A stretch of 64,000 bases of DNA from Candidatus Aenigmatarchaeota archaeon (GTDB lineage: Archaea; Aenigmatarchaeota; Aenigmatarchaeia; PWEA01): contig PWHK01000020.1 in assembly GCA_003554845.1 (NCBI GenBank), positions 6,895 to 70,894 on the forward strand. The letters run 5' to 3'. Shown piece after piece: positions 33,108-49,358 of the stretch. Position numbers and translations under genes: made by a program. Numbering within the stretch: position 1 is the stretch's first letter; every line of letters begins with the position of its first letter. Below the pieces are notes generated by a model. That model had not been told where the DNA came from. It saw nothing but the letters and a program-made list of their open reading frames with translations, and did no database searches.

Positions 33108-33116
33108 CCTAAGAAA

Positions 33117-33887
33117 TTATTCTACAGATTCACGATGGCCGTCGCTGTATTCTTCATCATCGGATGATTCATTGTCCCTGCGTTTGTTCTTTGTTATCTT
33201 CGGGAGAAACTCCTTGAAGGCCTTTTCCAGTGAACTCACCCTCGATCCAATACCTTCAAGACGGGAAGAAACATCGTCTATATCATATTCTATTTCTTCT
33301 AAATTATCATCCTGCCTTTCCTTTATACTATCTATCTCATCTCTGAGATCCTCTATCTCAGCAACTATCTCTTCTCTCCCCTCCATAAACTTCTCAAGAT
33401 CCTTCTCCACATTAGACCACTTTTCATCTATTATCTCCTCTACAAGTATCTCGAGCTCTATCTCCTCCTCTTCGGTCATGAAAGCCTCGGTTTGTGGAGA
33501 CGGGGGAGTCCTGCTACCACGCTGTCCACCTCCCTGGTTTGAAAAAGACGAAGACGGCTGGGGAGCAACAAATGTATTTTCAGAAAAATCGTTGGCTGGC
33601 TCAGACCTATCAGCAGGAGCCTCTTCGTCAAGTTTCGGTGATCTGCGGGCAACCTGTGATTCACCAGTAGAACTTGAAACCTTGTTTTTGAGTACCTTGT
33701 TCATGCTCCTCTCTATCCTGTCGTTCGGATACCCCATACTCTTGAGTTCATTTATTATCTCCATCTCCGAATAGCCCTGGGAAGCAAGCCTCCTGACCTC
33801 TCCACTAGGCGATCCTAAACCAGAAGAATCAAAACTATCGTCCTTGTCACTTTCTCCGTCCTTACTCTTACCAAAACCAAGAACCAT
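33117..33887 (-). CDS. hypothetical acidic coiled-coil protein
   Basis: 256 aa. Ser-rich N-terminus and strongly acidic coiled-coil C-terminus. Confidence 0.4.
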   Translation of the reverse strand: MVLGFGKSKDGESDKDDSFDSSGLGSPSGEVRRLASQGYSEMEIINELKSMGYPNDRIERSMNKVLKNKVSSSTGESQVARRSPKLDEEAPADRSEPANDFSENTFVAPQPSSSFSNQGGGQRGSRTPPSPQTEAFMTEEEEIELEILVEEIIDEKWSNVEKDLEKFMEGREEIVAEIEDLRDEIDSIKERQDDNLEEIEYDIDDVSSRLEGIGSRVSSLEKAFKEFLPKITKNKRRDNESSDDEEYSDGHRESVE

Positions 33888-33892
33888 GTTAC

Positions 33893-34294
33893 CTACTTCC
33901 TCTTTTGAAGCTCTTCTTTAATAAGTCTTTTCACTTCGTCCTCGGTAACAAACTCCGTTTCCATAGGTGAAAGAAGGTTTATGAAATTCTTTACCTCTTC
34001 GAACTCGGCCCTCCTGGGAACATCCTCAAGTCTATCCTTTATCTTTGGTATCTTGTTCTCTATCTTGAGTATTCTCATGAGAAGTTCATCCAGACCGTCC
34101 TTTACCTTTTCTATATCGTCTCTTTCCCTGTCCTCGAGATCCATTATTCTGTCCTCGAGGGATCTCAATGCAGTTTCCACAGACTTGTTTTCCCTTTCAA
34201 CGTCTCTCAGCCGCCTTGAATTGCCCTTGACCCTTTCGAGAAGCTCCCGTACAATTTCCCTGAGACCTTGATCATCCGCCTCACCAAAAGCCAT
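33893..34294 (-). CDS. hypothetical coiled-coil protein
   Basis: 133 aa. Heptad-like charged pattern. Confidence 0.4.
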   Translation of the reverse strand: MAFGEADDQGLREIVRELLERVKGNSRRLRDVERENKSVETALRSLEDRIMDLEDRERDDIEKVKDGLDELLMRILKIENKIPKIKDRLEDVPRRAEFEEVKNFINLLSPMETEFVTEDEVKRLIKEELQKRK

Positions 34295-34392: not shown

Positions 34393-36675
34393 GTGGTTAA
34401 AATGCCATGTGATTATGAATACAACGAAAAGGAAAACAAGATAGAAGTAAACTGTTCGGGCTGTATATACGGCAGTAGCGTTGCCGACTACGAAGAATGC
34501 ATGGCAAATACAATCGACAAGATTCTCAAAGTCAAGGGAGTAGAGTCGGTGGTATTCAAGAACAGCCGTGAGTACGAGTACCCCTACGAACAGACAAGAA
34601 TTCTAGTGGAAATAGCAGAGGTTCTGGAAGACATAATGAAAGACAAGGGACTGAGGAAGCTTGAACGTATGGATGCACCGGGCTGTAGCCAGTACTTCAG
34701 GGAAAAATACTCTGAGCTCCAGAACATTGTACTTGAGGAGTTCACTAAGGATCCCATAGGAACTTACATAAGGCTGAAGAGGAAGTTGAGGCACATCCGT
34801 ATTCAGATGAAAGAAAACAAGGGTGGTCCCCAGAACAACTGCAGAAAGAAATACCTCGAAGAGATACTCATACCGATAAAAGAAGAGATAGAAAACACAA
34901 GGATGATACAGGGTGTAAAGGACCAGCTCTCCGGATACCGGCCCGGGAGAAGGGATGCATACAGAGAACTTTTCTATCCTTCCGTAAGGCCAAACTTCAT
35001 GCGAACAAAGTATATGAGACAGGCCCCTGAAAGTGGAAAGAAGTTGGAGCACTACAACATAGGAAGTTCCGATGTGGACATATACGATCTCCCGGATGAA
35101 ACAAGACCCATGTACCACTTTTCTCCACCGGAGTTCAAACTCGAAGAGGAGGAGTACAAGATACTAGACGAGGCTCAGAGATACCTCAGTGAACACAGAC
35201 CACAGACAACAGAATTTGCCGACTCAAAGAGAACAAGAGAAGTATTTTCTTCTATAGGAAGAGATCTTGTAAAGGATATAGCAAGAAGGAAGAGTGTCGA
35301 TCTTGAAAACGAACAGGTAGAAAGACTAACATCTATACTCGGTAGATACACAGGAGGACTGGGCATACTCGAGGCCATACTCGAAGACGAAAGAATACAG
35401 GACATATACGTGAACTCTCCCATAGGCAGCAAGCCTATATTTGTAAACCATGGAGATTACGGCGAGTGCAAGACAAACATAATTCCAACACAGGACGATG
35501 CAGAAAGCTGGGCAACAAAGTTAAGGCTTTCAAGTGGAAGGCCACTGGACGAGGCCAATCCTGTCCTTGATTCATCTGTAGAAGTACCCGGTGGAAGTGC
35601 AAGAATTACAATAATAGCTCCGACGCTCTCTCCACAAGGAATGGGCTTTGCAATAAGAAGACACAGAGAGGACCCGTGGACATATCCCCTCTACCTGAAG
35701 CCCGATGTAGGCTACTTCAGTCCACTCTTCACCGGTCTGATGAGTTTTGTAATAGACGGTGGAAGAAGTTTTCTTATAGGAGGTGGCAGAGGATCGGGTA
35801 AGACTTCACTCCTTGGAGCTTCCCTCATGGAAATGAAAAAGGACTGGAGAATAATAACAAGCGAAGACACTCTAGAACTTCCTGTAAACAGACTCAGGGA
35901 GCTGGACTACGACGTACAGAACCTAAAATCAAGGTCTGTTATAACACAGGTCGAAACCGAACTTCCTGCATCCGAGGCAATAAGAACAGCCCTCCGTCTT
36001 GGTGACTCTGCTCTCATAATGGGTGAAGTCAGGTCAAAGGAAGCAAAGGCACTCTACGAAGCCATGCGTATAGGAGCCATGGCAAAGACTGTAGCAGGAA
36101 CCATACATGGTGAATCGGCATACGGTCTCTTCGACCGTGTTGTAAACGATCTCAACGTACCGAAGACATCGTTCAAGGCCACCGATCTAATTGTAATATG
36201 TAATAGGATAAAGAGCGCCTCAGGACTCCATGAAATGAGGAGGGTAACAAATGTGACAGAGGTCAGAAAACACTGGTCCGATGATCCAAGGGCAGAAGGA
36301 GGATTTGTTCCCCTAATGGAATATTCGGCAGAAGACGACGAACTAAAGCCTACAAATACACTCCTAAACGGCGAGTCTGAAATTCTCAATAGAATATCTT
36401 CCCAGGTAAAGGACTGGGCAGGAAGGTGGGACAGAGTCTGGGACAATATAGAACTCAGGGCTAAGGTCAAGGAGGCCGTAACGGACTATGCCCTAAAGAC
36501 AGGGAACGAAGAGATTATGGAAGCTCCCTTTGTTGTAAAGAGTAACAGTAAGTTCCGACTTACCATGGACGAAGTAAAGAATGAGATCGGGTATATAGAT
36601 CCTGACGAAACATTCGATAGATGGGAAAAATGGCTCAAGGAGCAGATAAAGACAGGTGAGTTCAAGAATGCCTAA
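34393..36675 (+). CDS. type II/IV secretion-system ATPase (FlaI/ArlI / GspE / TadA family) with long N-terminal extension
   Basis: Walker A GGGRGSGKTS, the following TSEDTLEL box, and Walker B ALIMGEVR, all in the C-terminal half of a 760 aa protein. GTG start. An ATG at 34402 is also possible. Confidence 0.8.
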   Translation: MVKMPCDYEYNEKENKIEVNCSGCIYGSSVADYEECMANTIDKILKVKGVESVVFKNSREYEYPYEQTRILVEIAEVLEDIMKDKGLRKLERMDAPGCSQYFREKYSELQNIVLEEFTKDPIGTYIRLKRKLRHIRIQMKENKGGPQNNCRKKYLEEILIPIKEEIENTRMIQGVKDQLSGYRPGRRDAYRELFYPSVRPNFMRTKYMRQAPESGKKLEHYNIGSSDVDIYDLPDETRPMYHFSPPEFKLEEEEYKILDEAQRYLSEHRPQTTEFADSKRTREVFSSIGRDLVKDIARRKSVDLENEQVERLTSILGRYTGGLGILEAILEDERIQDIYVNSPIGSKPIFVNHGDYGECKTNIIPTQDDAESWATKLRLSSGRPLDEANPVLDSSVEVPGGSARITIIAPTLSPQGMGFAIRRHREDPWTYPLYLKPDVGYFSPLFTGLMSFVIDGGRSFLIGGGRGSGKTSLLGASLMEMKKDWRIITSEDTLELPVNRLRELDYDVQNLKSRSVITQVETELPASEAIRTALRLGDSALIMGEVRSKEAKALYEAMRIGAMAKTVAGTIHGESAYGLFDRVVNDLNVPKTSFKATDLIVICNRIKSASGLHEMRRVTNVTEVRKHWSDDPRAEGGFVPLMEYSAEDDELKPTNTLLNGESEILNRISSQVKDWAGRWDRVWDNIELRAKVKEAVTDYALKTGNEEIMEAPFVVKSNSKFRLTMDEVKNEIGYIDPDETFDRWEKWLKEQIKTGEFKNA

Positions 36676-38731
36676 GGACCCGAAAAAGGGGGATGGTTAT
36701 CCCAAGGAAGAAGGTCTGAGGATGCCTGAAAACAAGGAGAGGAGTTTCAAATCGAGGGAATATGAGACATTTCTAGAAGAGGAAAGAGAGCAGAAAAAAC
36801 TTTCGATATATGAAAAAATGTGCAATATTTCTGAGAATATAATCGTTGTGGAACCAGACGAGGAAAAGAAGAAGGAGATAGAACGATCAATAAACATGAC
36901 GTATATGAACATCACTCCGGCGGGCGCCTATTCCTTTGCTATCTTATTCGGAACCGCCATCTTTGTTATTTCGATAATGCTGATGATACTCGGTATTGCT
37001 TCGATGGTATTCGGCATTCTCATGTTCGTACTGGGTGCCGTTTCTATATATCTTCTTTCAGAATATCCCAACTCACAGGCCAGGTTATTCCGTGTAAAGG
37101 CAGCCGATCAGATAATGCTTGCTATAATCTATATGGTTATCTACATGAGAACTTCCCCTAATCTCGAAGGAGCCATAAAGTTTACTGCTAAGCATCTTGG
37201 TGAACCACTATCCATGGACTTCAAAAAACTACTATGGGATGTAGAAACAGGTAACTATATATCGATGAGAGAAGCCCTTGGAGACTATCTCGAAAAGTGG
37301 GAAGACAACAAGGCATTTGTAGAATCAGTCCAGATAATTCAGGACTCCATGCAACAGACAGGAGAAAAAAGGAAGAGAATGCTCGACGAAGCAATAAACA
37401 CTATGATGACAGGATCCAGGGAGATGATGAAAAACTACTCGAATAAACTCGAGCTTCCTGTGCTCGTAATACATGCCCTTGGTATAATGCTTCCTATCAT
37501 GGTCCTAATAATGTTTCCTATAATAATGCTGATGTTAGAAGAAACCATAAGACCTGCGTTCCTTATAATAGGATACAACATTGTCCTGCCTCTCATAATA
37601 TACCTAACAGGAAAAAGAACTCTGGAGTACAGGCCCATGGGATTTTCGGAGCCGGATATATCAAAACATCCTGATCACATTCCCTCTGGAATGATAAACA
37701 TCGGAGGTAAGGAGATAAAGATATGGCCTATATCTGTTCTTCTGTCGGTTCCTGTAATACTTATAGGAATATACCTGGTCAATTTCTATGGAGGTGGGGA
37801 CATATCAACCCAACTCTACACATCTCTATTCATAACCCTTGGAATAGCCCTGGGCCCTTCGACCTACTTCTATCTGGACTCAAGTGCCAAGCTGAAGCTA
37901 AGAAAGGAGGTGAAGGACATAGAAGATGAGTTTTCAGAATCTCTTTTCTCTCTGGGCAACATACTCAATCTCGGCAAGCCCATGGAAAGAGCTTTGGAAG
38001 AAACTGCAGTAAAAAATAAAGACATGGACATATCAAATATGTTCGAAATAGTTGTAAACAATATCAAAAAAGGTGGCATGAACATAAGAAGAGCCTTTTT
38101 TGACAATAAGTATGGGGCTGTGTGGCATTATCCATCGAATCTCATAATATCCGTCATGAAAATAGTTATGGATGCAGCAGAGAAGGGCTCGGATGTAGTT
38201 TCCAGATCAACTATATCCATATCAAAGTATCTACAGCAGCTCGATGAGATAGAAGAAGATCTTAAGAACATGCTCTCGTCTGAAACCACTTCCATGCAGT
38301 TTCTGGGAACATTTTTGGGGCCCTTCGTAGCAGGAGTTTCTGTGGCCATGGCTGCTATAATGATATCAATATTCCACGGCGTGGGTGGTTCATTGGATGC
38401 ACTGGCAGGACCAAGGACTTCACCAGGAGTAGGTGGAATCGGCGGGATGGGGCTCAATGAAGGTCTGGTAGGTGGATGGGGCTCGGCGGAAAATATGATA
38501 CCTATACCATGGATACAGGTAGTCGTAGGTCTCTACGCTATTCAGACATCCTACCTTCTATCGATGCTGACATCCGGTATAGAAAACGGACCGGGTGATG
38601 AGATCAAAAAAAGACGTAATGCAGCCATAATGATTTTGATAGGTGTAGTAGTTTACGGTCTTTCGATAGCCGTTGTTTGGGAGATCTTCGGAGGACAGAT
38701 TTCAGGACTTCTGTCTGCTACTATAAACTAA
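36656..38731 (+). CDS. polytopic membrane platform protein (FlaJ/TadC-like, T2SS-F-like) - tentative
   Basis: 691 aa with about 9-10 TM helices and cytoplasmic loops. Overlaps the ATPase gene by 20 nt. Assignment rests on genomic context and topology. Confidence 0.5.
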   Translation: MSSRMPKDPKKGDGYPKEEGLRMPENKERSFKSREYETFLEEEREQKKLSIYEKMCNISENIIVVEPDEEKKKEIERSINMTYMNITPAGAYSFAILFGTAIFVISIMLMILGIASMVFGILMFVLGAVSIYLLSEYPNSQARLFRVKAADQIMLAIIYMVIYMRTSPNLEGAIKFTAKHLGEPLSMDFKKLLWDVETGNYISMREALGDYLEKWEDNKAFVESVQIIQDSMQQTGEKRKRMLDEAINTMMTGSREMMKNYSNKLELPVLVIHALGIMLPIMVLIMFPIIMLMLEETIRPAFLIIGYNIVLPLIIYLTGKRTLEYRPMGFSEPDISKHPDHIPSGMINIGGKEIKIWPISVLLSVPVILIGIYLVNFYGGGDISTQLYTSLFITLGIALGPSTYFYLDSSAKLKLRKEVKDIEDEFSESLFSLGNILNLGKPMERALEETAVKNKDMDISNMFEIVVNNIKKGGMNIRRAFFDNKYGAVWHYPSNLIISVMKIVMDAAEKGSDVVSRSTISISKYLQQLDEIEEDLKNMLSSETTSMQFLGTFLGPFVAGVSVAMAAIMISIFHGVGGSLDALAGPRTSPGVGGIGGMGLNEGLVGGWGSAENMIPIPWIQVVVGLYAIQTSYLLSMLTSGIENGPGDEIKKRRNAAIMILIGVVVYGLSIAVVWEIFGGQISGLLSATIN

Positions 38732-38779
38732 AGGAGCAAAACAATAAAAACAAGGTAAAATAAGGTTTATCTGGACCCT

Positions 38780-40009
38780 ATGAAACCTCTAAACGACCAG
38801 AAAGGATCTTCTGTCCTTATTATAATAGTAGTCGGGGTAATAATTATACTCATAGCAGGCAGCCTTGCGACTGTGATGATGAGTCGTATTGCCCAGGACG
38901 TGCTTGGACAAAGTGTCATGTGTGATACTTTTTGTGAGATGCAGTCCACTGTAGAAGAAGTGACAACACTGGATTTTATGCCAAGTCATGGTCCAACCGG
39001 TACATTCATTTTTACACTGGGGTTGGGACCGGCGGGATTAGCTGGATCCAAAGTATGGAACTGGATAGTAGGAGAAGTAGGAAGAGATAGAGAAGATGTT
39101 GCAAGGGATCTGGCAATAGATTACCTAATCCGACCCGAAGGCATGGGTTGTTACTGTGGCGTGTCCGATGCCAGAGGAAAGTATATACACTTTCTGACAC
39201 CCGGTCCTAGCTCAACCAGGCCACATGTGGCCGAGTTCCACCTAACAGAACAGACTCCGGAAAAACATCTCCAAGAAGAGATAATAGATACAGATGGAAA
39301 CACTATATTCAAACACGGTGGTTATGGCCAAAAAAGTAACTGTGAAGATGAACTTAGTAAGATAGATGAACTTGACAACGGTGAGTACTTGGCCGAACTC
39401 GATATATATCCCGGATGTATAATACTTTCAACCACCGATGACAACTGTGCAATATGGGCATTCGATGAAACCTTCGCAATAACCAACGAAGAAGGAAAGT
39501 CCATAAGGGAACAGGCCGAAGAACAGGATAAAATCATATTCGCTAGCACGATAAGGTCCGATGACCCCGTAAACAGCCTGGGTATTGCAGAAGAGATAGA
39601 GGCAAGTGGCAGACACGACTCCCAGAGGATGCTCCTCGAGCATTACGAAGAGGGTATACACCCCTTCCAGGTTTACTTACCTGTGGTCTGTAAATCAGAG
39701 GAAAGAACTGAAAGACGTGTCCAGGATCCACTTGACAGGGCATGTAGAGAACAGTGCCATGACGGAAACACACTTCTATGGGCTTCCAGGTGTTTCGAAG
39801 GACCAGAAGATGCCGGAGAAATCTACCGTCCTCTGGAGGAAGATTTTCTTCCGGAAGACTATGATGAAACCAGGGACCTGTGCCCTGTGGAAGACGATGA
39901 AAATGAAGAGGAAGAAAGTAACGACGAAGATCGTGGTTATCCCTTCTGCCTCTGTAACACTCCCCGAAGTTATTCATGGGAACTAGATGAAGAATACACA
40001 GAGATATGA
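38780..40009 (+). CDS. class III (prepilin-like) signal peptide protein, large cysteine-rich paralog 1
   Basis: MKPLNDQKG|SSVLIIIVVGVIIIL. Shares GCYCGV, HDSQRMLL, PVVCKS, RACREQC and PFCLC ... YSWE motifs with 40033 and 41282. Confidence 0.55.
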   Translation: MKPLNDQKGSSVLIIIVVGVIIILIAGSLATVMMSRIAQDVLGQSVMCDTFCEMQSTVEEVTTLDFMPSHGPTGTFIFTLGLGPAGLAGSKVWNWIVGEVGRDREDVARDLAIDYLIRPEGMGCYCGVSDARGKYIHFLTPGPSSTRPHVAEFHLTEQTPEKHLQEEIIDTDGNTIFKHGGYGQKSNCEDELSKIDELDNGEYLAELDIYPGCIILSTTDDNCAIWAFDETFAITNEEGKSIREQAEEQDKIIFASTIRSDDPVNSLGIAEEIEASGRHDSQRMLLEHYEEGIHPFQVYLPVVCKSEERTERRVQDPLDRACREQCHDGNTLLWASRCFEGPEDAGEIYRPLEEDFLPEDYDETRDLCPVEDDENEEEESNDEDRGYPFCLCNTPRSYSWELDEEYTEI

Positions 40010-40032
40010 TATCTTGAATTTTTGTGATGTAA

Positions 40033-41136
40033 ATGATTGACGAAAAAGGCAGTTCATTTCTATTCATAATAGTTGTAGCTATAATCTTATCTCTGATCGT
40101 TGGTTCTTTAATTACAGGTGCATTTGCTATGACAGTAAGGACTGTGGTCGGAACCGATCTTTCCTGTCCGACCTTCTGTGCAGTTCAAGCAGACATAGAG
40201 GAATACAGCATGGCAGATATAATGCTACCATCCGTACTACCATTCATAGAGGAAAGCTCGGATGGAATTGCCCATAAAGTAGCAGACTGGATAATACAGC
40301 CAGAAGGACTCGGTTGTTACTGTGGTGTCAAAGAAAGAAGTGGAAGATACATTCATTTTCACACAGGTCCTCCTGGAGAAAGGTCAATAAGAGAACTTCA
40401 CTTGACGGATCAGGACCCACACATACATCTCGACTATCATGTCGGGGATTCCGATGGAAACACATTATTCGACCACAGCTTCGACAAGAGCAACTGCGAG
40501 GAAGACATAAACAGTTTAAAAGAGGTACAGTACTACCAAGACGTCGGCTGTGTAATCGTGGTTAACTCCGACGGAGGATACTGCTCTATACATGTAATAG
40601 GAGAAGGTTCGGTTATAGAAAACAACATAGGTGAAAGTATACAGGATCAGGTTGAAATCAGGGAAACATTAACGACAAACTACGACGAAAACGATCCTAT
40701 TTCGTTTTTTGAAATCGGCGACAGATACAACGTACCTCGATTTGTACATGAAGAAGGAGATATTCTAACATACACGATAGGAGGCCAGCCCTACCAGCAC
40801 GACTCCCAGAGGATGCTCCTCCGGGACTACGACGAATACCTAGGAGCTAAGTTCGCTCTCTATGCTCCTGTTGTCTGCAGAACCTCGGTAGCAGAAGGAC
40901 AGGAAGTTCAGACAAAACTTGATGAAAAATGCAGAGAACAGTGCAAAGAAGACAGGAAGATTTTTCTGTCTTCTGCATGCCATGATATTCCCAGGGAAGG
41001 ATACAAACCGCTACGTGATGAACACCACGAAGAAGACACTTTCTGTGAAAAGGAGGGTAAAGGTCCGTACTGCAGATGTATGCACGAGAAACGGTACTAC
41101 TGGGAGGTAGACGAGGATTATTCGAGAGAAAACTAA
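40033..41136 (+). CDS. class III signal peptide protein, large cysteine-rich paralog 2
   Basis: MIDEKG|SSFLFIIVVAIIL. Same conserved Cys framework. Confidence 0.55.
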   Translation: MIDEKGSSFLFIIVVAIILSLIVGSLITGAFAMTVRTVVGTDLSCPTFCAVQADIEEYSMADIMLPSVLPFIEESSDGIAHKVADWIIQPEGLGCYCGVKERSGRYIHFHTGPPGERSIRELHLTDQDPHIHLDYHVGDSDGNTLFDHSFDKSNCEEDINSLKEVQYYQDVGCVIVVNSDGGYCSIHVIGEGSVIENNIGESIQDQVEIRETLTTNYDENDPISFFEIGDRYNVPRFVHEEGDILTYTIGGQPYQHDSQRMLLRDYDEYLGAKFALYAPVVCRTSVAEGQEVQTKLDEKCREQCKEDRKIFLSSACHDIPREGYKPLRDEHHEEDTFCEKEGKGPYCRCMHEKRYYWEVDEDYSREN

Positions 41137-41168
41137 AAAATAAAAAACAAAATATATTGAATGATACC

Positions 41169-41282
41169 ATGGAAGCAAATATTTCGGTCCTGCTCTGGGT
41201 GATGGTAGCTTTTGTCCTATTTGCACTTTTGGTTGTATTTACTGCCATGTTCTTTGCCGATACATTTGGGATTTTGATATAA
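41169..41282 (+). CDS. small hydrophobic ORF (37 aa, MEANISVLLWVMVAFVLFALLVVF ...)
   Basis: Single TM helix. Its TAA stop overlaps the ATG of the next gene (TAATG). Confidence 0.3.
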   Translation: MEANISVLLWVMVAFVLFALLVVFTAMFFADTFGILI

Positions 41283-42571
41283 TGAAAAACAACATGATCA
41301 ATCAAAAGGGAGCATCGGTAGTTGCCCTGTTTGTAATAATAATTATAATGGTGAGTGCATGGGTTTTAATACAAAGTATAGGCCCCATAACCAGAGCTTC
41401 TATGGAAACCGAGGTATCATGTCCCCTCTTCTGTGATATACATTCAGGCGTGGAGGAATACTCTAGATGGGCATGGTGGCCTGGGTGGCTAGGAGGAAGT
41501 GTAAGCTGGTCCGATATATTTACGAACGAACTCAGAAAAAACATGGTGGAGCCTAAATCAATGGGCTGTTACTGTGGTGTCCAGGAAGAAAGGGGGAAGT
41601 TTATTCACTTCCAGGGAACTACCAGCAGTCTATATGAATTCCACATGACCGATCAGGATCCACTAATGCATCTTCGTATGAAAGCCGATCCGTTTGATCA
41701 CAGACCATCTGATGAATCAACGGTTGAATCATGCCGGTTAGTTGTAGAAAACTACGGAGAACAGTTCAGCCCACCTGTATATGATCCAACCGATCTTCAC
41801 AAGGTTCAGGGATGTATAATTGTTTCTGAATCACCAGGCTGTGCAGTATGGGTATTTGGAGAAGGTTTTTCGATAAGAAGAGATTCAGAGAATTCTATCT
41901 GGGAACAGGCACAGGAACAGGAAAGAGACATAGAAGCCTTTTCCATAGATAGAGGAGAAGACCCTGTTTCAGATCTAAATATAGGCGAAACTATACATGT
42001 CTCGAGTTCAAAGGACCCCTCTCAGAGAATGCTCCTCCGGGAATATGAAAGCGGCGACCGAGATTTCAATCTCTCTACATCCGTGGTATGTAAAAGCATT
42101 GAAACAGCTAAAACAATGCCCACAGATCAACTGGACAGGGCTTGCAACGAATACTGTTCGGACAAGGGTCTCTTCTTTCTAAACTCTGCTTGTCTACAAG
42201 AAAAAAGAAGGGGTTACAATACTCTCCCTGAAGAGTACATAGAACAAGAGAGGAGTGATCTCTGCCCTGAAACAGGAGAACTCCCCTTCTGCCTCTGTGC
42301 TGGTGAAAAGGAATACTACTGGGAAACATACTGGGAAGATTTTTATACAATAACGGTAGAAACCCAGGGTAGTGGAACCGTTGATATCAACCCCGATCTA
42401 GACGAATACTACAGAGGTCAGGGAGTATTACTGGAAGCAGAGGCGGACAACGAATGGGAGTTCAGCCACTGGGAAGGCAACTATCCCACTGGACAAAAAG
42501 AAGATTCGGAGATAACGATAACAGTAGATGGTAACATGGTGCTTAGTGCTGTATTTGAATCAGAGCATTGA
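41282..42571 (+). CDS. class III signal peptide protein, large cysteine-rich paralog 3 (extra C-terminal domain)
   Basis: MKNNMINQKG|ASVVALFVIIII. Carries GCYCGV, PSQRMLL, VVCKS, RACNEYC and PFCLC ... YYWE motifs. Confidence 0.55.
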   Translation: MKNNMINQKGASVVALFVIIIIMVSAWVLIQSIGPITRASMETEVSCPLFCDIHSGVEEYSRWAWWPGWLGGSVSWSDIFTNELRKNMVEPKSMGCYCGVQEERGKFIHFQGTTSSLYEFHMTDQDPLMHLRMKADPFDHRPSDESTVESCRLVVENYGEQFSPPVYDPTDLHKVQGCIIVSESPGCAVWVFGEGFSIRRDSENSIWEQAQEQERDIEAFSIDRGEDPVSDLNIGETIHVSSSKDPSQRMLLREYESGDRDFNLSTSVVCKSIETAKTMPTDQLDRACNEYCSDKGLFFLNSACLQEKRRGYNTLPEEYIEQERSDLCPETGELPFCLCAGEKEYYWETYWEDFYTITVETQGSGTVDINPDLDEYYRGQGVLLEAEADNEWEFSHWEGNYPTGQKEDSEITITVDGNMVLSAVFESEH

Positions 42572-42633
42572 GATCCCTCATTAGATTAAAACTTATAACA
42601 CATAGCCAACATGTATAATATGAGGATGTTTGC

Positions 42634-42816
42634 ATGGAAAGAAATTCTAAATATATCTTTTCCAGTGGTGAGATAAGCATACAGGTCGTAATCATAATAA
42701 TACTCATGTTGATAGGACTCACTGTTGTCCTTATAATATCATCCGGTGTCGGTGGTTTTGGAACAAATGTATCATCGAATATAATGGGATATCTAGCAGA
42801 TGCTATAGGTGCATGA
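42634..42816 (+). CDS. small pilin-like protein (60 aa)
   Basis: Short polar N-terminus then a long hydrophobic helix. Confidence 0.35.
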   Translation: MERNSKYIFSSGEISIQVVIIIILMLIGLTVVLIISSGVGGFGTNVSSNIMGYLADAIGA

Positions 42817-42818
42817 AA

Positions 42819-42971
42819 ATGGAATACGATAAAAAAGGTTTTATAAGTATAATTATGCTTCTGATCATAGCACTTGTGGCACTATCGGTGGGTCTTATGC
42901 TTATACATGCCTTTTGGGGAGGCGGAGGAGGCTTGTTGAATCTACTCATTCAGAGACTCCAAATGGTATAG
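42819..42971 (+). CDS. small pilin-like ORF (about 50 aa, MEYDKKG|FISIIMLLIIALV)
   Basis: Translated by hand. KKG-hydrophobic class III-like start. Not in the supplied track (under 60 aa). Confidence 0.3.
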   Translation: MEYDKKGFISIIMLLIIALVALSVGLMLIHAFWGGGGGLLNLLIQRLQMV

Positions 42972-42979
42972 GTGAAAAA

Positions 42980-43126
42980 ATGTCTATATTCAACGATACG
43001 CTTATAATTTTTCAAAAAAACACAAAGATAATATTCGCCTTAATAGTTTTTGCCCTTCTTATAGGTATACTTTACTACACAATAAATCCTCTGATAGACA
43101 CGTTAATGGGGGCTATAGGTTATTGA
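42980..43126 (+). CDS. small membrane ORF (48 aa)
   Basis: MSIFNDTLIIFQKNTKIIFALIVFALLIGILYY ... Confidence 0.3.
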   Translation: MSIFNDTLIIFQKNTKIIFALIVFALLIGILYYTINPLIDTLMGAIGY

Positions 43127-43127
43127 T

Positions 43128-43844
43128 ATGAACATAATCAACAAGAAGGGTTCAAGATCGCAGAGCGAGTTCATATTTCTTGCAATAAAGGCAGTAATAG
43201 GTATCTTGGCTATAGGTGTTATTGCATTGAGTGTCAGGGGCATGGAGACAGGCTGTAGTACACATGACGAAAATCCATCGGCATGTATAAGCAATACAGA
43301 ATGCAGACCTGCGGTCAGAAGAGAAAAAAGCACATTTTCTATACCTGTTGATATTATGCGGTCTGTAGATATAGTCTATCATACAGAAATAACCGGCGAT
43401 ATAGAATGTCGGGATTCCATAAGGACTCCCAACAACAGATACCACGCCGCAGAGGATGCTCAGTGTGTCTGTCCTGTTGGGTGGGAAGTAATTTTAGACA
43501 GAGAAGATCAGTACTATGGAGTCTGTAGGCTACCAGGAACCAACAACTATCACCCATGTGAGTATCCACCCGACGGCGAACGACAGGAAACAGAATTCAA
43601 AGACATGTGTGAAGATGGAGATAGATACCACGGAGAAGTCTGGATCGACGGAACAGATGAAGAAGCTCCAAATATGTGCTGCGATGATGGAGATACAAAA
43701 GAGTGTGACTCCGATAACATAGATGAAAAATGTGGTGATCTGGTCTGTATTGAAATAGAGGTTGAAGTCGAAGACGGAGAAGAGGAAGAAATCACTTTCT
43801 GGATAGATGAAGAGAGTGTACCTGATATAGAATACATAATTTAA
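43128..43844 (+). CDS. class III signal peptide protein, cysteine-rich mid-size paralog A
   Basis: MNIINKKG|S ... GCSTHDENPSACISNTECRPAV and YHGEVW ... CCDDGDTKEC shared with 43872. Confidence 0.5.
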   Translation: MNIINKKGSRSQSEFIFLAIKAVIGILAIGVIALSVRGMETGCSTHDENPSACISNTECRPAVRREKSTFSIPVDIMRSVDIVYHTEITGDIECRDSIRTPNNRYHAAEDAQCVCPVGWEVILDREDQYYGVCRLPGTNNYHPCEYPPDGERQETEFKDMCEDGDRYHGEVWIDGTDEEAPNMCCDDGDTKECDSDNIDEKCGDLVCIEIEVEVEDGEEEEITFWIDEESVPDIEYII

Positions 43845-43871
43845 AATACACAAAATAAAAAATGAAGCAGA

Positions 43872-44528
43872 ATGTTTTCAAAAAAAGGTACTGCTAAATC
43901 ACAGGAAGAAACACTTTGGTTTATAATCAAGATAGCTATAGTAATCATAGGATTTGTAATTCTAATTGTTGCTTTTCTTAGGATGGAGGCAGGCTGTAGC
44001 AGGCATGATGAAAATCCATCGGCATGTATAAGCGACGAGAGCTGTAGACCTGCAGTTAAAGAGGTGGACTCAGGATGGGACATATATGCATCACTGTATG
44101 GATCATACCGAACGGAAGTGGTGGGTAAGATAGAGTGCAAAGAATCCGTAAGAAAACCTGATACAAGACACCACGCAGCCCATGATGGAAAATGTATATG
44201 CCCGGGTTTCTGGGAAGAAATTATAGACAGAAATCATGACTACTTCGGTGTATGCTATACTGATTACAATGGAGAAGAAATGTACTATCCTTGTCAGTAT
44301 GGCCTAAATGTTCAGGTCGAGGAAATAAAGGACAGTTGCGAAAGCGTTGAAAAATACCACGGAGAAGTATGGGGCTCCGGTTGGAATACCCCCGATAGAT
44401 GTTGCGATGACGGCGAAGTAAAGAAATGTAATATACTCAACAGTGGTGAAACTTGCGCAGACTATACATGCAGATCTGGCCCAGCCAAGCATCAGGTTGT
44501 CGATATCCAGTACTACTGGCAGCCATAA
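43872..44528 (+). CDS. class III signal peptide protein, cysteine-rich mid-size paralog B
   Basis: MFSKKG|T ... GCSRHDENPSACISDESCRPAV and YHGEVW ... CCDDGEVKKC. Confidence 0.5.
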   Translation: MFSKKGTAKSQEETLWFIIKIAIVIIGFVILIVAFLRMEAGCSRHDENPSACISDESCRPAVKEVDSGWDIYASLYGSYRTEVVGKIECKESVRKPDTRHHAAHDGKCICPGFWEEIIDRNHDYFGVCYTDYNGEEMYYPCQYGLNVQVEEIKDSCESVEKYHGEVWGSGWNTPDRCCDDGEVKKCNILNSGETCADYTCRSGPAKHQVVDIQYYWQP

Positions 44529-44572
44529 ACTGCAGTGCACCTTTCAAAAAGATTTAAACAAACACAACAAAG

Positions 44573-44995
44573 TTGTATACGATGAACACCCCAGCAAAGG
44601 GCATAGGCGTAGGAAAATCCCTTACGTTAATACTGATACTGGTTATTCTCTTGTTTACAACCGTCTTAATAGGTGATATATTTACATCCGTGCTTGGTAT
44701 GGGCGTAGGAGATGAGTTCCACATTACAATGGGAGAATTATCTGTATCCTACACTACATCTAGCTCTTTTCAGGAAAAAACTGTTATAGAAGAAAATCTT
44801 CCGATGGCCTGCGAAAAAGTTGTATTTAGAAACAGCACACTAAAGGCCTACCTGGAACATGATGAATTTTACTTTATACCATATACCACACAAGAAATGG
44901 ATAAAGACTTTGAGGTGGAATGTGATTCCTTTGGTAGGGTAAAGTTTATTGACGGAAGGATAGAATCATCTAGCCCTGTCGCTGGAACATTTTAA
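44573..44995 (+). CDS. pilin-like protein (140 aa)
   Basis: MYTMNTPAKG|IGVGKSLTLILILVILLF. Confidence 0.45.
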   Translation: MYTMNTPAKGIGVGKSLTLILILVILLFTTVLIGDIFTSVLGMGVGDEFHITMGELSVSYTTSSSFQEKTVIEENLPMACEKVVFRNSTLKAYLEHDEFYFIPYTTQEMDKDFEVECDSFGRVKFIDGRIESSSPVAGTF

Positions 44996-44997
44996 TT

Positions 44998-45888
44998 ATG
45001 GTGCATAAAATGAAAAACAAAGGAACAACCGGAGGAGACTACATATGGCAGATACTGTTTGTTATAGTAACGATAACCTATCTTGGTGCCTTTTATGTTA
45101 TATTTATAGCCGGTTCAACAGTAGATGTCGAAGGTTTTGAAAGAACCCAGGGAAGACTACAGAGTTCCGCTGCCCACACCAGACTTTTGTCACATCCCGA
45201 TTTTATTTCTACAGGAGAGATCGGCGTATTCGATGAATCACTTCTCAATTCCAAGAACGGCACAGAGAAGCTAGAAGAACTCTACAACCCATCGCTCTGG
45301 ATTTATGTAGAGATAGAAAACATGGAAAACGACGATAAATACATATTTGGTACACCCGGGCCCCTGAAAGCAACGGAAGGATGGTTGACTGAGGATGGGA
45401 ATATGGATACATGGGAAGATGAAGAAATGAGTTCCTGGGATCACGTGGTCGGTAGATACAGTACATTAGTAAACATAGACACCGGCGACGGATTCGATCT
45501 AGCTAAACTATATCTTTACTTCCGGCAGATACCCGACCCTATGATAAAGTTAAAGGAGGGTATTCATATAGCCAGGGAAGAAGGAAGCCATACAGTTACA
45601 CTTTTGCACCCAATCGCGATATGCTGGGAGTACGACTACACGCTATCGGGAAGATACTGCTCAGAAGACGAAGATTCCTTTTCAATAGACGTAAGCCACT
45701 CAGATAAAATAAAGGGTAGTTTTGGTGGATACATGCACCTGAAAGACGTAGAGTTGAAGGCATTCAACGAGGAAGAGGAAAAGTTCGAGATAGACCCGCC
45801 CGGTAGGTTCACGGATGGAAAAATAGACATAGAACTTGCTCATACCGGCGGTAAAACGGTAGAATATGAAATAGTTGACAGATGGTAA
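44998..45888 (+). CDS. pilin-like protein (296 aa)
   Basis: MVHKMKNKG|TTGGDYIWQILFVIVTITYLGAF. Confidence 0.45.
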   Translation: MVHKMKNKGTTGGDYIWQILFVIVTITYLGAFYVIFIAGSTVDVEGFERTQGRLQSSAAHTRLLSHPDFISTGEIGVFDESLLNSKNGTEKLEELYNPSLWIYVEIENMENDDKYIFGTPGPLKATEGWLTEDGNMDTWEDEEMSSWDHVVGRYSTLVNIDTGDGFDLAKLYLYFRQIPDPMIKLKEGIHIAREEGSHTVTLLHPIAICWEYDYTLSGRYCSEDEDSFSIDVSHSDKIKGSFGGYMHLKDVELKAFNEEEEKFEIDPPGRFTDGKIDIELAHTGGKTVEYEIVDRW

Positions 45889-46420
45889 AATGAAAAAATT
45901 AATCGGTAGAAAGGGTGGCTTTATGGTCTTGTTAGCCACGCTTATATTCACCGCCGTGTTCTTAATTACTCTGTTTATAGTCGGTCCCTTTATAGGAGGG
46001 GCGCAGATGGAAATAGAAGTAATGTCAGAAAATCCCGCCGGATTCAGCATAGAGAAAAACACACTTCTCAGAACCAATGAAACAAAAAGAAAACTTATGG
46101 CTTTTGGTGAGGGAGATGAATCAGTAGACGAATCCATCGCCAGGACAAGCGACAAATTCGGTGGGACCTATTCGGATTCCCATATACTACTTTTTAGGTT
46201 CGAAAAGGATGATGATGTAGAGATAGTCGGTTTTTCGTGTTCGGATGGATGTGGATACATAGAAGGATATGAAGAAGAGATGGATATTATCTTAAAAAAT
46301 TCAGAAGTAGTAGCACCGAGACCCATAATGTTACCAAAAGGCAAGATGGGATCCTCATATTCTGTCTACTTCAACCCCGAGGAAATGGCCGCACGGGTTA
46401 TGCAAGGCACACAATATTAA
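45875..46420 (+). CDS. pilin-like protein (181 aa)
   Basis: GRKG|GFMVLLATLIFTAVFLITLFIV. Overlaps the previous gene by 14 nt. Confidence 0.45.
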   Translation: MTDGKMKKLIGRKGGFMVLLATLIFTAVFLITLFIVGPFIGGAQMEIEVMSENPAGFSIEKNTLLRTNETKRKLMAFGEGDESVDESIARTSDKFGGTYSDSHILLFRFEKDDDVEIVGFSCSDGCGYIEGYEEEMDIILKNSEVVAPRPIMLPKGKMGSSYSVYFNPEEMAARVMQGTQY

Positions 46421-46427
46421 TGATAAA

Positions 46428-46985
46428 ATGTTAGGAAACAAGGGATTGAAAATTACGATATTAGTTTTCTCGGCAGTATTGATAGGCGTTACCTTAGCAA
46501 CAGCGGTAGTTGTGGGTGTAATGACGTACCACGGAGAGGAACAGTCCTGGTTCGGACAGGGTGAAAGAGTTACAGCAAAGGTCCAGTACGATCATGCACT
46601 GGGTGCAGTAGAAGATTCGTTTTTACTGGGTATATACTGGGGTATACAGGAATCAGGCAATGACTGGGAAAATGCAGAAGAATCCATCGAGGAAGAAATA
46701 GAAGAAAAAATAAAGCATTATTTGGATAGGATAGAAGGTTTTTACGAAGGTAGTTATGATACGCAACCCATCTATCTTGAAACAAGAATACGGATCGATG
46801 ATGTTGAAATTGAATTATACTTAGACGAAGAAACCATAGACAGTGTAAAGATGTCAGGTAATATGACTTCCTACAGGAACCAGCCCTCGATAGCAATATC
46901 CGATGATTTTTACATCGAAGAAAACTTCCAGGAAAACTACTCAACGCTCTATGATATGTCAAATAATCCATTAGAAAATATGTAA
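46428..46985 (+). CDS. pilin-like protein (185 aa)
   Basis: MLGNKG|LKITILVFSAVLIGVTLA. Confidence 0.45.
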   Translation: MLGNKGLKITILVFSAVLIGVTLATAVVVGVMTYHGEEQSWFGQGERVTAKVQYDHALGAVEDSFLLGIYWGIQESGNDWENAEESIEEEIEEKIKHYLDRIEGFYEGSYDTQPIYLETRIRIDDVEIELYLDEETIDSVKMSGNMTSYRNQPSIAISDDFYIEENFQENYSTLYDMSNNPLENM

Positions 46986-47020
46986 ATTTTATAAGAAAGG
47001 GAGGGTCATTTAACATTAAG

Positions 47021-48001
47021 ATGAAGGAAAAGGGGTTCATGTTTGGAATAACACCGGTCGTTCTTTTAATCCTAGGTGGTTTGGTCGTGCTTGTATTTTC
47101 CGTGGGATCGGGAACCTTTTTGGAAATTTCTGAAGGTCTTATAGATGTAGGAGAGGAGGAGGCAAGAAGGGTCCACAGGAGATTTAAATATCCTATCTTG
47201 AGACATGAACTTCCAGAGGAAGGATTTCCCGATGAAGGATCGGGACAGGTTGTGACCTCCTGTAGATCCATAGGATCAGAGGGTTCTTATCAACTACAGG
47301 ACTCTATAGAATGCCCTGATCACGAACCAATCGAAGAGTTCAGGGGAACGCTGGATGGCCGTGGACATGAAATATCCGATCTAAATGTACCTCTATTTGA
47401 AATGATATCATCGGAGGGCACTGTGAAAAACATTAGAGTTTCAGGGGTGGATATACATCAAGAAGACTCCGCAGGCGGTCTTTCGGTGACAAACCAAGGA
47501 ACAGTTGAAAGGGTACATGTTTCCGGAACAGTTCAGGGCGGAAGCTATGTTGGTGGCCTTACTGGAATAAACAGTGGAAATATAAGGAAATCTTCCTCCA
47601 CGGCAGACGTAGGTGGAACAATCAATGTAGGAGTACTGGTAGGACAACATACCTCCGGCTCCGTAATAAATTCATATACGATCGGTTCTGTAAAAGGCAT
47701 ATCAAATGTAGGCGGATTAATAGGTTCTGGAAGTGGAGAAGTAGATAAAACATATGCAGCCAGTTATGTAGATGGTTCTACCAATGTACAAGGGTTGGTA
47801 GGATCTGGTTCTGCCAATTCAGTTAAAAACTCCTTCTGGAGCACTGACACATCTGGAATTCTCCCTGAAGAAATTTCTGGGAGTATTATAGGAACGCCGA
47901 AAGTCGACGAAGCCATGGAAGACAAGGAAATCTATGTTTCCACGAGAACGGATGGTCTAGAAGAGCCATGGGACTTCGATGAAATATGGACCATGGGGTA
48001 A
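47021..48001 (+). CDS. pilin-like protein with GLUG-type glycine-rich repeats
   Basis: MKEKG|FMFGITPVVLLILGG. Then about four ~27-aa repeats containing GGLTG / GGLIG / QGLVG, ending FWSTDTSG, as in GLUG-motif surface proteins. Confidence 0.55.
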   Translation: MKEKGFMFGITPVVLLILGGLVVLVFSVGSGTFLEISEGLIDVGEEEARRVHRRFKYPILRHELPEEGFPDEGSGQVVTSCRSIGSEGSYQLQDSIECPDHEPIEEFRGTLDGRGHEISDLNVPLFEMISSEGTVKNIRVSGVDIHQEDSAGGLSVTNQGTVERVHVSGTVQGGSYVGGLTGINSGNIRKSSSTADVGGTINVGVLVGQHTSGSVINSYTIGSVKGISNVGGLIGSGSGEVDKTYAASYVDGSTNVQGLVGSGSANSVKNSFWSTDTSGILPEEISGSIIGTPKVDEAMEDKEIYVSTRTDGLEEPWDFDEIWTMG

Positions 48002-48002
48002 A

Positions 48003-48164
48003 ATGAACTACATTCTTTCAAAAAAAGGGCTACAGTTCCATATTCTACTTTACATAATACTGGGACTTATCGTACTAACTATCATCGCTACCCAAGCACT
48101 AACCACAGAAGGATTCTTCGATGGGTTTTCCGATCTACTTAGGGAGATTATATTTTCAAGCTAA
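48003..48164 (+). CDS. small pilin-like protein (53 aa)
   Basis: MNYILSKKG|LQFHILLYIILGLIVL. Internal Met of the listed ORF chosen as start. Confidence 0.35.
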   Translation: MNYILSKKGLQFHILLYIILGLIVLTIIATQALTTEGFFDGFSDLLREIIFSS

Positions 48165-48208
48165 GTTAAACCATAAGTTTTAAATCAGACAGTCGATAAG
48201 GTTTAACC

Positions 48209-48466
48209 ATGAAAATCAAGTCCGGGAAGAGATTAAAGCCTCTGTACCTCGGAGCTCTGGTTTTAAGTTTGATAGTGATCCTTTCCATAATAGTTTTAAG
48301 CCTGGATATAACAGAGGGGCCCACCAAAGAAGATGAACTAAGCCGTTCTTGTGTAGGCTACCTCCAGAGAAACTGTTGCAGTAATCCAGAAATAGGTCGG
48401 TGCCAAGAGTTTGAAAACGAATTATGGACACACCAAGAAGATCCGTTTGATATATGTTGTGAATAA
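48209..48466 (+). CDS. small cysteine-rich membrane-anchored protein (85 aa)
   Basis: N-terminal TM helix and 7 Cys in the C-terminal 40 aa. Confidence 0.4.
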   Translation: MKIKSGKRLKPLYLGALVLSLIVILSIIVLSLDITEGPTKEDELSRSCVGYLQRNCCSNPEIGRCQEFENELWTHQEDPFDICCE

Positions 48467-48469
48467 ATA

Positions 48470-48781
48470 ATGTCAACTAAAAAAGGCTTAGGAGGCTCAA
48501 TTAGAATCGTCGTAGTATCAATAATCGTACTTGTTATTTTGTTCCTTGTTGCCACTTTTTTTGTCACAGGAAGTGAAGAACTGACGGAAATGGGGTTCCG
48601 CGGAAAGACCGAACTGGCCTGCCATAGATTCGAAACCAGGGGATGCTGCATAAACTACGATGAAGAGGATCCCGGACAGTGTGCTGTAGACAAGATATGG
48701 GAAGGCTACAACGAAGAAGAAATGGACGAAGAAGAATTAGAAAAACTGGAGGAAGTCGACTGGGAAGAAAAATGCTGCTGA
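48470..48781 (+). CDS. small cysteine-rich pilin-like protein (103 aa)
   Basis: MSTKKG|LGGSIRIVVVSIIVLVILF. Acidic Cys-rich tail ending CC. Confidence 0.45.
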   Translation: MSTKKGLGGSIRIVVVSIIVLVILFLVATFFVTGSEELTEMGFRGKTELACHRFETRGCCINYDEEDPGQCAVDKIWEGYNEEEMDEEELEKLEEVDWEEKCC

Positions 48782-48790
48782 GGGGATAAA

Positions 48791-49060
48791 ATGATTTCAA
48801 AAAAAGGTCTTGCGCTTCCGGTTACGATAATAATAGTCTTAGTTATATCCATTATAGTTCTGCTTATACTGATTACATTCATGGGATGGGGATGGGAAAC
48901 GGGGCCTATAAACCAGACACAGGAAGGAATAGACGAACAGTACGAAGAACAAGACCCTCTAGGAGATATATTCAACTCGACGCAAAATCACCACAGGACA
49001 TCAAAACACACACACAGGCCTGGTATACATACGGTGGAGGAATGGTTGGATGCTCGATAA
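48791..49060 (+). CDS. pilin-like protein (89 aa)
   Basis: MISKKG|LALPVTIIIVLVISIIVLL. Confidence 0.45.
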   Translation: MISKKGLALPVTIIIVLVISIIVLLILITFMGWGWETGPINQTQEGIDEQYEEQDPLGDIFNSTQNHHRTSKHTHRPGIHTVEEWLDAR

Positions 49061-49358
49061 AAGGGGTATAGAGCTTTCAATAAGGTTAATAGTTATTCTG
49101 CTTATCTCCACAATAGTACTTCTAGCAGTTCTCGTATTTTTCGGCAATGTGTGGGATACAAGTCCATTTGAACATGCCATGGGAAACTTAACGGAACAGC
49201 AGTCAGATCTAGGCAGTAAAAATCTCGGTGGTTTTGGAAGGATGGTGCGCCTGCCGGGATTTTCAGAGACATTGGAAAGATCAATGCTTCCTTTGAACCC
49301 GGGCTTCGAGCATGGGAGGCTCGAGTCCTACCAGACTAGACCACAGGCGCATATTTAG
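49050..49358 (+). CDS. pilin-like protein (102 aa)
   Basis: MLDKRG|IELSIRLIVILLISTIVLL. Overlaps the previous gene by 11 nt. Confidence 0.45.
   Translation: MLDKRGIELSIRLIVILLISTIVLLAVLVFFGNVWDTSPFEHAMGNLTEQQSDLGSKNLGGFGRMVRLPGFSETLERSMLPLNPGFEHGRLESYQTRPQAHI

Follow-up and report, generated by a model that had tools for sequence, protein, structure and literature searches.

A probable type IV filament locus of the coiled-coil-protein-linked type in the genome of an Aenigmatarchaeota archaeon

What kind of machine is encoded by a locus in which a secretion ATPase and a polytopic membrane protein are followed by a long run of proteins that start like archaeal prepilins? This question is raised by a 64,000-nucleotide (nt) stretch of the contig PWHK01000020.1 from a Candidatus Aenigmatarchaeota archaeon, which is referred to here as the window. 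An earlier note, made from the letters of the window, had described a type IV pilus-like locus at 34393-49358 and had distinguished it from an archaellum. The presence of a secretion ATPase, a TadC-like platform and a run of class III (prepilin-type) N-termini bears this out. The locus is read here, with a probability of roughly 0.7, as a type IV filament (pilus-like) biogenesis locus of a probably halophilic Aenigmatarchaeota archaeon, belonging to the coiled-coil-protein-linked type that is conserved in cluster-2 DPANN archaea.

The secretion ATPase is encoded on the plus strand in an open reading frame (ORF) from 34393 to 36675. Public gene calls start at 34402, which refines the product to 757 amino acids (aa; 34402-36675). 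At its N-terminus stands a conserved extension of about 290 aa that holds a cysteine cluster, followed by an N-domain like those of FlaI, CpaF and GspE2 and by a RecA-type ATPase domain. The protein carries a Walker A motif (GGGRGSGKTS), an Asp box (SEDTLEL), a Walker B motif (LIMGEVRS) and a His box (TIHGES). The Pfam family T2SSE was matched above its cut-off of 24.9 bits (7.7e-14, 51.5 bits). Among the NCBIfam models, the FlaI equivalog gave the best match (3.5e-40, 138 bits, cut-off 550), followed by TadA (1.3e-33, 116.6 bits, cut-off 373), and the match to BasE was weaker than both (2e-14, 53 bits, cut-off 1000), while those to VirB11, TrbB and ComGA were far weaker than the FlaI and TadA matches. 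By sequence, the nearest solved structures are GspE2 of A. fulgidus (2oap, 4.8e-26), CpaF (1.1e-20) and FlaI (1.2e-15). The motifs, the T2SSE match and these structural relatives are those of the hexameric PilB/GspE/FlaI-superfamily ATPase that characterizes the type IV filament superfamily. More than 5700 homologs were found, and the top 120 are all at least 52% identical, nearly all of them across at least 97% of the query; the exceptions are two alignable intein-bearing homologs that cover less. Three homologs (P0050, P0069 and P0094; 912-1269 aa) are intein-containing versions with intein and LAGLIDADG domains (PF14890, PF14528). Among the homologs of about 750 aa, C18, C21 and C34 are conserved in at least 90% and C3 in at least 60%, and C95 and C147 are conserved as well.

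The end of the ATPase gene is overlapped by 8-20 nt by the start of the platform gene (36668-38731, plus strand; ORF from 36656), which encodes a polytopic, TadC/FlaJ/T2SS-F-like protein of 687 aa with 7-9 hydrophobic segments. Its match to the Pfam family T2SSF (PF00482) is just below the cut-off of 25.2 bits (3.5e-5, 24.2 bits). Since many of the full-length proteins among its 115 homologs (35-87% identical) carry a precomputed PF00482 assignment, the platform very probably belongs to the PilC/TadC/FlaJ (T2SS-F) family; some of these homologs were named TadB by the Joint Genome Institute (JGI). A profile search retrieved 461 relatives among the GTDB species representatives, and the same profile had zero matches among the PDB sequences. 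The ATPase and the overlapping multi-transmembrane protein were found as the earlier note had described them.

Behind the platform gene, 19 ORFs follow on the plus strand (38780-49358), separated by -61 to +97 nt, which agrees with the tight gene run described before. The statement that nearly every product carries a class III signal proved too broad, since such an N-terminus, consisting of a short polar leader ending in [KR]-G and a subsequent hydrophobic stretch, was found in 15 of the 19 ORFs. The motif is ambiguous in s85 and missing from s68, s60 and s48. What stood was a strong enrichment. A strict version of the rule retained 11 of the 15, corresponding to 11/17 called genes of the locus compared to 3/76 elsewhere in the window (Fisher p=6e-8), and two of these three outside genes, pil111 and pil113, encode pilins that belong to the system. 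The small protein s52 fell out of the strict count solely through a greedy gene call. By this motif rule, the 15 locus ORFs together with pil111 and pil113 carry the class III signal that marks substrates of the type IV filament superfamily. The smallest products of the run have 37-52 aa. Searches of the cargo, as the products of the run are called here, against Pfam and NCBIfam found no family except for GLUG/M26_N in g326 and an InlB B-repeat in c429, in keeping with the lack of recognizable homology reported by the earlier note. Its statement that the window holds neither an archaellin nor an archaellum accessory gene was likewise upheld by library scans of the tested ORFs.

To what extent this arrangement is particular to the window can be seen from its relatives. 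From the 461 platform relatives, 80 loci were kept, onto which the window proteins and the class III-type N-termini were mapped. A layout of small polytopic (mp) genes, coiled-coil (cc) genes, ATPase, platform and class III genes recurs in Aenigmatarchaeota, as seen in this synteny comparison, which the earlier note had proposed. The architecture is shared by dozens of Aenigmatarchaeota loci and by one metagenome-assembled genome (MAG) labelled Nanohaloarchaea (L086), in which the cc, mp, ATPase and platform genes are homologous. Downstream of the platform, the relatives encode 4-11 class III-type genes on the same strand, including proteins of 400-1000 aa, and their runs typically close with one to three pilins, each about 100-120 aa long. 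For this reason the subunits of the window cannot be called unusually numerous and large for the lineage, as had been suggested. Orthologs of the window cargo occur in the same order only in the closest genomes (L004-L007, L084 and L085). In L005, the ATPase and the platform are 76% and 73% identical to those of the window, compared to 39-63% for the cargo, and the corresponding values for L006 are 80% and 69% compared to 27-36%. The cargo has diverged at a much higher rate than the motor.

One pilin family departs from this pattern. Two tandem stand-alone genes, pil111 (59641-59976; 111 aa, 11 Cys) and pil113 (60039-60380; 113 aa, 10 Cys), are located 10 kb downstream of the locus on the opposite, minus strand. 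Their products begin with M(NS)KKG(I/V)(S/T)LP(V/I)NMLVILAVAVIVLL, which places the predicted cleavage between KG and (I/V)(S/T)LP(V/I)NMLVILAVAVIVLL. A hidden Markov model (HMM) of the family detected it in 20 related loci, usually in 1-3 copies that stand last among the pilin genes, and the identity reaches up to 56% even where the platform has an identity of only 37%. No other pilin family is conserved across the phylum and in distant loci, so that pil111 and pil113 are the best candidates for the major pilin. At the downstream end of the run itself, the proteins s89, s102 and s103 have N-termini resembling those of pil111 and pil113 and are conserved in L084 and L085.

Upstream of the ATPase, a second conserved group of genes (30384-34294) was identified. 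The earlier note had placed the ORFs of 34393-49358 correctly and had missed this module as well as the pil111/pil113 pair (59641-60380). The module begins with five tandem genes on the plus strand for paralogous small polytopic proteins, the mp proteins (30384-30944, 30955-31422, 31466-31963, 32014-32556 and 32553-33107), which share the N-terminal motif LPWLL..A.VYG.L and have no family in Pfam or NCBIfam. In relatives, three to five such genes for proteins with five transmembrane segments (5-TM) and about 160-190 aa each lie beyond the coiled-coil genes. Copies were found by HMM in 33 related loci, and mp genes are present in 18 of the 24 loci that have at least 7 kb of upstream sequence and an ATPase adjoining the platform. 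An AlphaFold2 (AF2) model of an mp protein was poor (pLDDT 56, pTM 0.38). Between the mp genes and the ATPase, two genes on the minus strand encode coiled-coil proteins. The first, cc256 (33117-33887), divergent from the ATPase and with only weak coiled-coil-type matches, starts with a small helical domain, continues with an acidic linker and ends in a coiled coil, without a signal peptide or transmembrane segment; its HMM found it in 37 related loci, including L003, L086 and L087. The second, cc133 (33893-34294), is a cytoplasmic coiled-coil protein with weak SMC-like and coiled-coil matches, whose HMM found it in 36 related loci (3.9e-35 in L086 and 9.2e-31 in L087). In 20 of the 24 comparable loci, the coiled-coil genes lie directly upstream of the ATPase and are divergently transcribed.

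The linkage of these genes is closer than that of the platform. The mp genes adjoin the ATPase both in L086 and in L087, the latter without an adjacent platform, and in L003 (CP070801.1) and L087 the platform is located elsewhere while an mp paralog, the coiled-coil genes and the ATPase remain together. Because they stay linked in this branch, the membrane paralogs, the coiled-coil proteins and the ATPase are the most constant unit. A separate observation concerns the same two loci, in which the ATPase without a platform is followed by genes for a glycosyltransferase of family 2 and a PMT-type glycosyltransferase (L003, 12543-19379; L087, 12275-13519). These neighbours may tie the ATPase module to envelope glycosylation or may be a coincidental synteny.

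The cargo itself falls into several families, all encoded on the plus strand. At its beginning stand three large paralogous class III proteins, c409 (38780-40009), c367 (40033-41136) and c429 (41282-42571), which are retained as a set of three orthologs, the triad, with a 37-aa hydrophobic ORF (41169-41282) between the last two. In each member of the triad, 14 Cys and four His are invariant, the motifs GCYCG and SQRMLL are present and the predicted position -1 is an invariant G, and the InlB B-repeat-like domain of c429 is C-terminal. Three very small hydrophobic proteins follow, s60 (42634-42816), s52 (42813-42971) and s48 (42980-43126), the KG motif being present in s52 only. They have orthologs in L004 and L005, and similar ORFs of 40-80 aa are found after the platform in most related loci. 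The paralogous 14-Cys proteins d238 (43128-43844) and d218 (43872-44528), with a conserved KG, a polar or mixed stretch and a transmembrane helix, have no family match, and their orthologs are confined to L004-L006. Next come the mid-size class III proteins p140, p296, p181, p185 and g326 (44573-48001); for p296 alone, an HMM detected relatives in distant loci (14 of them). The last of the five, the 326-aa protein g326 (47021-48001), carries the GLUG/M26_N repeats, which are of a beta-helix type. Both this module and the InlB B-repeat are typical of surface proteins. The run ends with the small pilin-like proteins s61, s85, s103, s89 and s102 (47979-49358), of which s85 and s103 have 6 Cys each, and the position and sequence of this distal group are conserved in L084 and L085.

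If the locus works as a type IV filament system, about 15 class III-type proteins would insert into the membrane and would be trimmed after the conserved K/R-G by a PibD/FlaK-type prepilin peptidase encoded elsewhere. The hexameric ATPase and the TadC-like platform would then pull the subunits from the membrane by their hydrophobic N-terminal helices, and the extracted subunits would polymerise into a surface filament. Its shaft would consist of the small conserved pilins pil111 and pil113, possibly together with s89, s102 and s103. The proteins c409, c367, c429, d238, d218, g326 and p296 may be minor or tip subunits of low abundance that present binding modules, and the cytoplasmic coiled-coil proteins and the 5-TM proteins may serve as conserved partners of the ATPase, probably with a scaffolding or regulatory function in the basal complex. 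A role in adhesion or partner recognition is suggested because the cargo diverges fast and carries surface-type modules, and because, to our knowledge, every DPANN archaeon in cultivation needs contact with the cells of a host. The divergence of the cargo would fit the recognition of a partner surface, such as that of a host cell. What the sequences show are the gene content, the motifs, the homologies of ATPase and platform, the synteny and the rates of evolution, whereas cleavage, filament formation, the roles of the subunits and the contact function are inferred from known type IV pili and from these data.

Several results weigh against this reading. No cargo protein matched a pilin or archaellin family in the Pfam and NCBIfam searches. 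In the AF2 model of c367, an N-terminal helix of 55 residues leads into a globular domain, as is general for pilins, but the fold search with the globular domain found no structural match. Because of these two results, the large cargo proteins are putative pilins by their N-terminus only. Three N-termini are atypical, since a polar or mixed stretch lies between the KG and the hydrophobic core in d238, d218 and p296 (12, 12 and 6 residues); in d238 and d218, 9-10 residues separate the KG from the first hydrophobic run. In the platform, a second T2SS-F repeat was not found (hhalign probability 0.9%), and an internal duplication was not detected. The polytopic ORFs of the window include no prepilin peptidase of the A24 family, as the earlier note had stated. 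A rhomboid protein, a SpoIIM protein and an S26 signal peptidase were considered as hidden prepilin peptidases and discarded; the further polytopic ORFs are the mp family and one ORF of 144 aa, and the alignment of the mp paralogs shows no conserved acidic or GxGD-type motif. In addition, the ATPase module may act beyond this operon, because the ATPase, coiled-coil and mp genes occur in some genomes without a platform or pilins nearby. Finally, filaments are not known from any Aenigmatarchaeon.

The chief alternative is a bindosome-like structure or pseudopilus, in which a short, envelope-embedded assembly anchors or displays surface proteins with class III signals, as in the Bas system of Sulfolobus, and does not form a long pilus. 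This would account for a cargo that is mostly large, globular and unrelated to pilins, and for the many different cargo types within one operon. Archaeal surface proteins other than pilins are known to use class III signals (PMC4858521), and the ATPase does have a weak match to BasE (2e-14). However, this match lies far below its cut-off and below those to FlaI and TadA, library scans showed no substrate-binding-protein or ABC-transporter domain in or next to the locus, and the conserved short pilins that accompany these loci are what would be expected for the shaft of a filament. A bindosome-like display or secretion structure is therefore regarded as unlikely. A bolder version of the filament reading holds that the invariant unit of 5-TM paralogs, two coiled-coil proteins and long ATPase drives a host-docking filament whose tip is a heterotrimer of c409, c367 and c429, with a fold absent from the PDB and setting the host specificity. 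It is put forward tentatively and with considerable doubt.

The ATPase superfamily also powers machines for DNA uptake and transfer, and DPANN archaea need hosts for many metabolites (PMC11291902). A type IV filament that exchanges nucleic acids or macromolecules with the host, similar to a competence pilus or a conjugation system and with adhesion not as its primary role, could draw on this dependence and on the weak VirB11, TrbB and ComGA matches of the ATPase. These matches rank far below those to FlaI and TadA, library scans detected no DNA-binding, nuclease, relaxase or ComEC/Ced-like channel protein in the locus, and the cargo lacks any sign of nucleic-acid handling, so that such a role is highly improbable. 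Least credible is a divergent archaellum for motility. It is favoured by the FlaI equivalog as the best NCBIfam match of the ATPase and by JGI names such as 'flagellar protein FlaI' for some homologs, but the score of 138 bits is far below the cut-off of 550, the protein exceeds FlaI in length by about 230 aa, and its nearest solved relatives by sequence are GspE2 and CpaF. Neither archaellins nor ArlH, ArlF/G, ArlC/D/E or ArlX were found in any tested ORF. This reading was rejected. The preferred reading remains a type IV filament locus with a proposed adhesive or host-contact function.

The surroundings of the locus are chromosomal. The closest named relatives of the ATPase identify an Aenigmatarchaeota MAG, and thus a DPANN archaeon, as the source of the DNA. 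An identical ATPase protein is found on the contig JAKOPF010000019.1 (MAG GCA_022257675.1) and on a metagenome contig from the ENA. The nearest relatives are from the isolates T1Sed10, B1Sed10, DKSSA and D1M06, whose proteomes are acidic, as is that of the window. The organism is a tiny, probably symbiotic archaeon and probably comes from a halophilic branch of the Aenigmatarchaeota; such a branch was named in a 2025 preprint (10.1101/2025.08.05.668663). The flanking genes are archaeal housekeeping genes, comprising FEN1, form III RuBisCO, ribose-1,5-bisphosphate isomerase, AMP phosphorylase, PCMT, OGG and tRNAs, and the gene order around the locus is chromosomal in the relatives as well. With these flanks and this synteny, a viral or mobile-element origin was not favoured. 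The full archaeal AMP-salvage trio of ribose-1,5-bisphosphate isomerase (IF-2B family), form III RuBisCO and AMP phosphorylase lies in a row at 55317-59189 on the plus strand. Three adjoining, extremely acidic proteins of 323, 150 and 401 aa (27600-30332, plus strand) have no family match and no counterpart in related loci apart from a weak match of 29% to one in L005. Far from the pilus locus, a 258-aa protein (8486-9262, plus strand) without a family match has a possible class III-like start if read from an internal Met (…MERG, then TNTSILLAVIAASLLLFGG). A 489-aa protein (24509-25978, minus strand) without a Pfam family has a hydrophobic, signal-like N-terminal segment and may be secreted or located at the surface.

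At the downstream border, the tail of s102 (49050-49358), the last ORF of the run, is antisense to a tRNA-Gly(CCC) gene (49243-49350, minus strand). This gene has a non-canonical intron of 32 nt in the T-loop, after whose removal a canonical tRNA of 76 nt with an encoded CCA remains. The intron accounts for the size of 84 nt given by ARAGORN and for the Rfam score below the gathering threshold. The tRNA-Gly orthologues in L084 (17752-17966) and L085 (17902-18159) appear to hold extra inserts. In both of these loci the border is composed as in the window, with small pilins, tRNA-Gly, OGG, an RNase H-like gene and DUF123, and a rearrangement at the tRNA as the cause of the separation of pil111 and pil113 is therefore unsupported.

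The locus type has been described bioinformatically (PMC11291902, PMC6393860, PMC4858521), and the window is a member of it and no new kind of system, because the core of ATPase, TadC and coiled-coil proteins is already known from cluster-2 DPANN. The earlier note had raised the possibility of an already characterized operon, and this applies to the description only, as no experimental characterisation of such a DPANN filament was found in the literature. In the sections concerned with these genes, Hamm et al. (2024, Nat Commun, PMC11291902) report that cluster-2 DPANN, with Aenigmarchaeota named among the lineages, share two conserved loci of a type IV pilus-like kind that encode CpaF, TadC and coiled-coil proteins; the loci were detected by proteomics in Ca. 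Nanohaloarchaeum antarcticus, and their function is uncharacterised. The window shares with these coiled-coil-protein (CCP) loci a CpaF/FlaI-type ATPase, a TadC platform, two adjacent coiled-coil genes and a listed lineage, and cc256 corresponds to the 'CCP' genes (NAR1_03220 and NAR1_01690) in position and type. The assignment is made by gene arrangement. In contrast, neither the 5-TM paralogs nor a long class III run is mentioned in the Fig. 4 legend and the accompanying text, and no mention of mp paralogs was found in the portions of the published locus descriptions that were consulted.

Subclade 4F of the ATPases, as outlined in part of Makarova, Koonin and Albers (2016, PMC4858521), combines an additional Cys-rich domain at the N-terminus with a coiled-coil partner and occurs in nanoarchaea without identifiable pilins; the same account notes that, in related systems, the genes of major pilins often stand alone as tandem duplicates. 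The N-terminal Cys-rich ATPase domain, the intracellular coiled-coil partner and the stand-alone tandem genes of the putative major pilin are all found in the window, a likeness in domain features and gene arrangement. Unlike the systems in that account, the window has cognate pilin-like genes directly linked to the ATPase and the platform, and its pilins do not match the arCOG02981/PilA-type families in the libraries searched. In DPANN genomic islands, unannotated 'dark matter' genes with signal peptides beside an ATPase and TadC were read as pilins (Makarova, Wolf and Koonin 2019, PMC6393860, Fig. 2A). The sequence of ATPase and TadC followed by many unannotatable signal-peptide genes is the same here, whereas the 14-Cys triad, d238 and d218, and pil111 and pil113 are not described among the examples given there.

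Better characterized systems are more distant. The Epd pili of Methanococcus maripaludis and the PilA/PilB-C pili of Haloferax volcanii likewise combine an ATPase, a TadC-like platform and class III pilins with an adhesion function, which is only proposed for the window (PMC3875500, PMC4371748). Their ATPases lack the 290-aa extension, they have no coiled-coil or 5-TM module, and, unlike the window cargo, their pilins can be assigned to known families (PilA, Class_III signal/DUF361). For the cargo of 200-430 aa, the modular minor pilins and tip complexes of bacteria (PilB and PilC of S. sanguinis; PilY1 with the minor pilins of type IVa pili) may serve as a model, in which large proteins join a pilin-type N-terminus to grafted globular binding modules and occur in a few copies at the tip (PMC9934059, PMC7541494); this is an analogy without likeness in sequence or fold, and the peptidase motif differs. 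Other known machines do not correspond to the locus. Archaellins, ArlH, ArlF/G, ArlC/D/E and ArlX were not found in the tested ORFs, and the ATPase stays far below the cut-off of the FlaI (ArlI) model; compared to the bacterial Tad/Flp pilus, the TadA score is too low, there is a single 687-aa platform and no Flp match was obtained; and compared to the Sulfolobus bindosome, the BasE score is too low and the cargo has no substrate-binding-protein domains.

What the window adds to these descriptions is an explicit link between cognate pilin-like genes and this ATPase type in Aenigmatarchaeota, the linkage of an upstream 5-TM and coiled-coil module to the ATPase, and a phylum-wide family of short pilins (pil111/pil113) along with orphan Cys-rich families. 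It is unusually complete, as a single contig carries the motor, the platform, the conserved accessory module and some 17 candidate subunits, and its close relatives show which parts of the locus are conserved and which are fast-evolving. DPANN archaea make up a large share of archaeal diversity, and the molecules by which they make contact are mostly unknown. No other candidate surface machine in cluster-2 DPANN is as conserved as this locus type. Provided that its large disulfide-rich proteins act as tip subunits, they would be natural candidates for determinants of host specificity, and they could become targets for antibodies or labelled probes in the search for the unknown hosts of Aenigmatarchaeota. 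Should the tip indeed be a heterotrimer of c409, c367 and c429, this would provide a handle on partner recognition in Aenigmatarchaeota and would establish modular tip pilins of archaea as a class of their own, together with new basal-body components.

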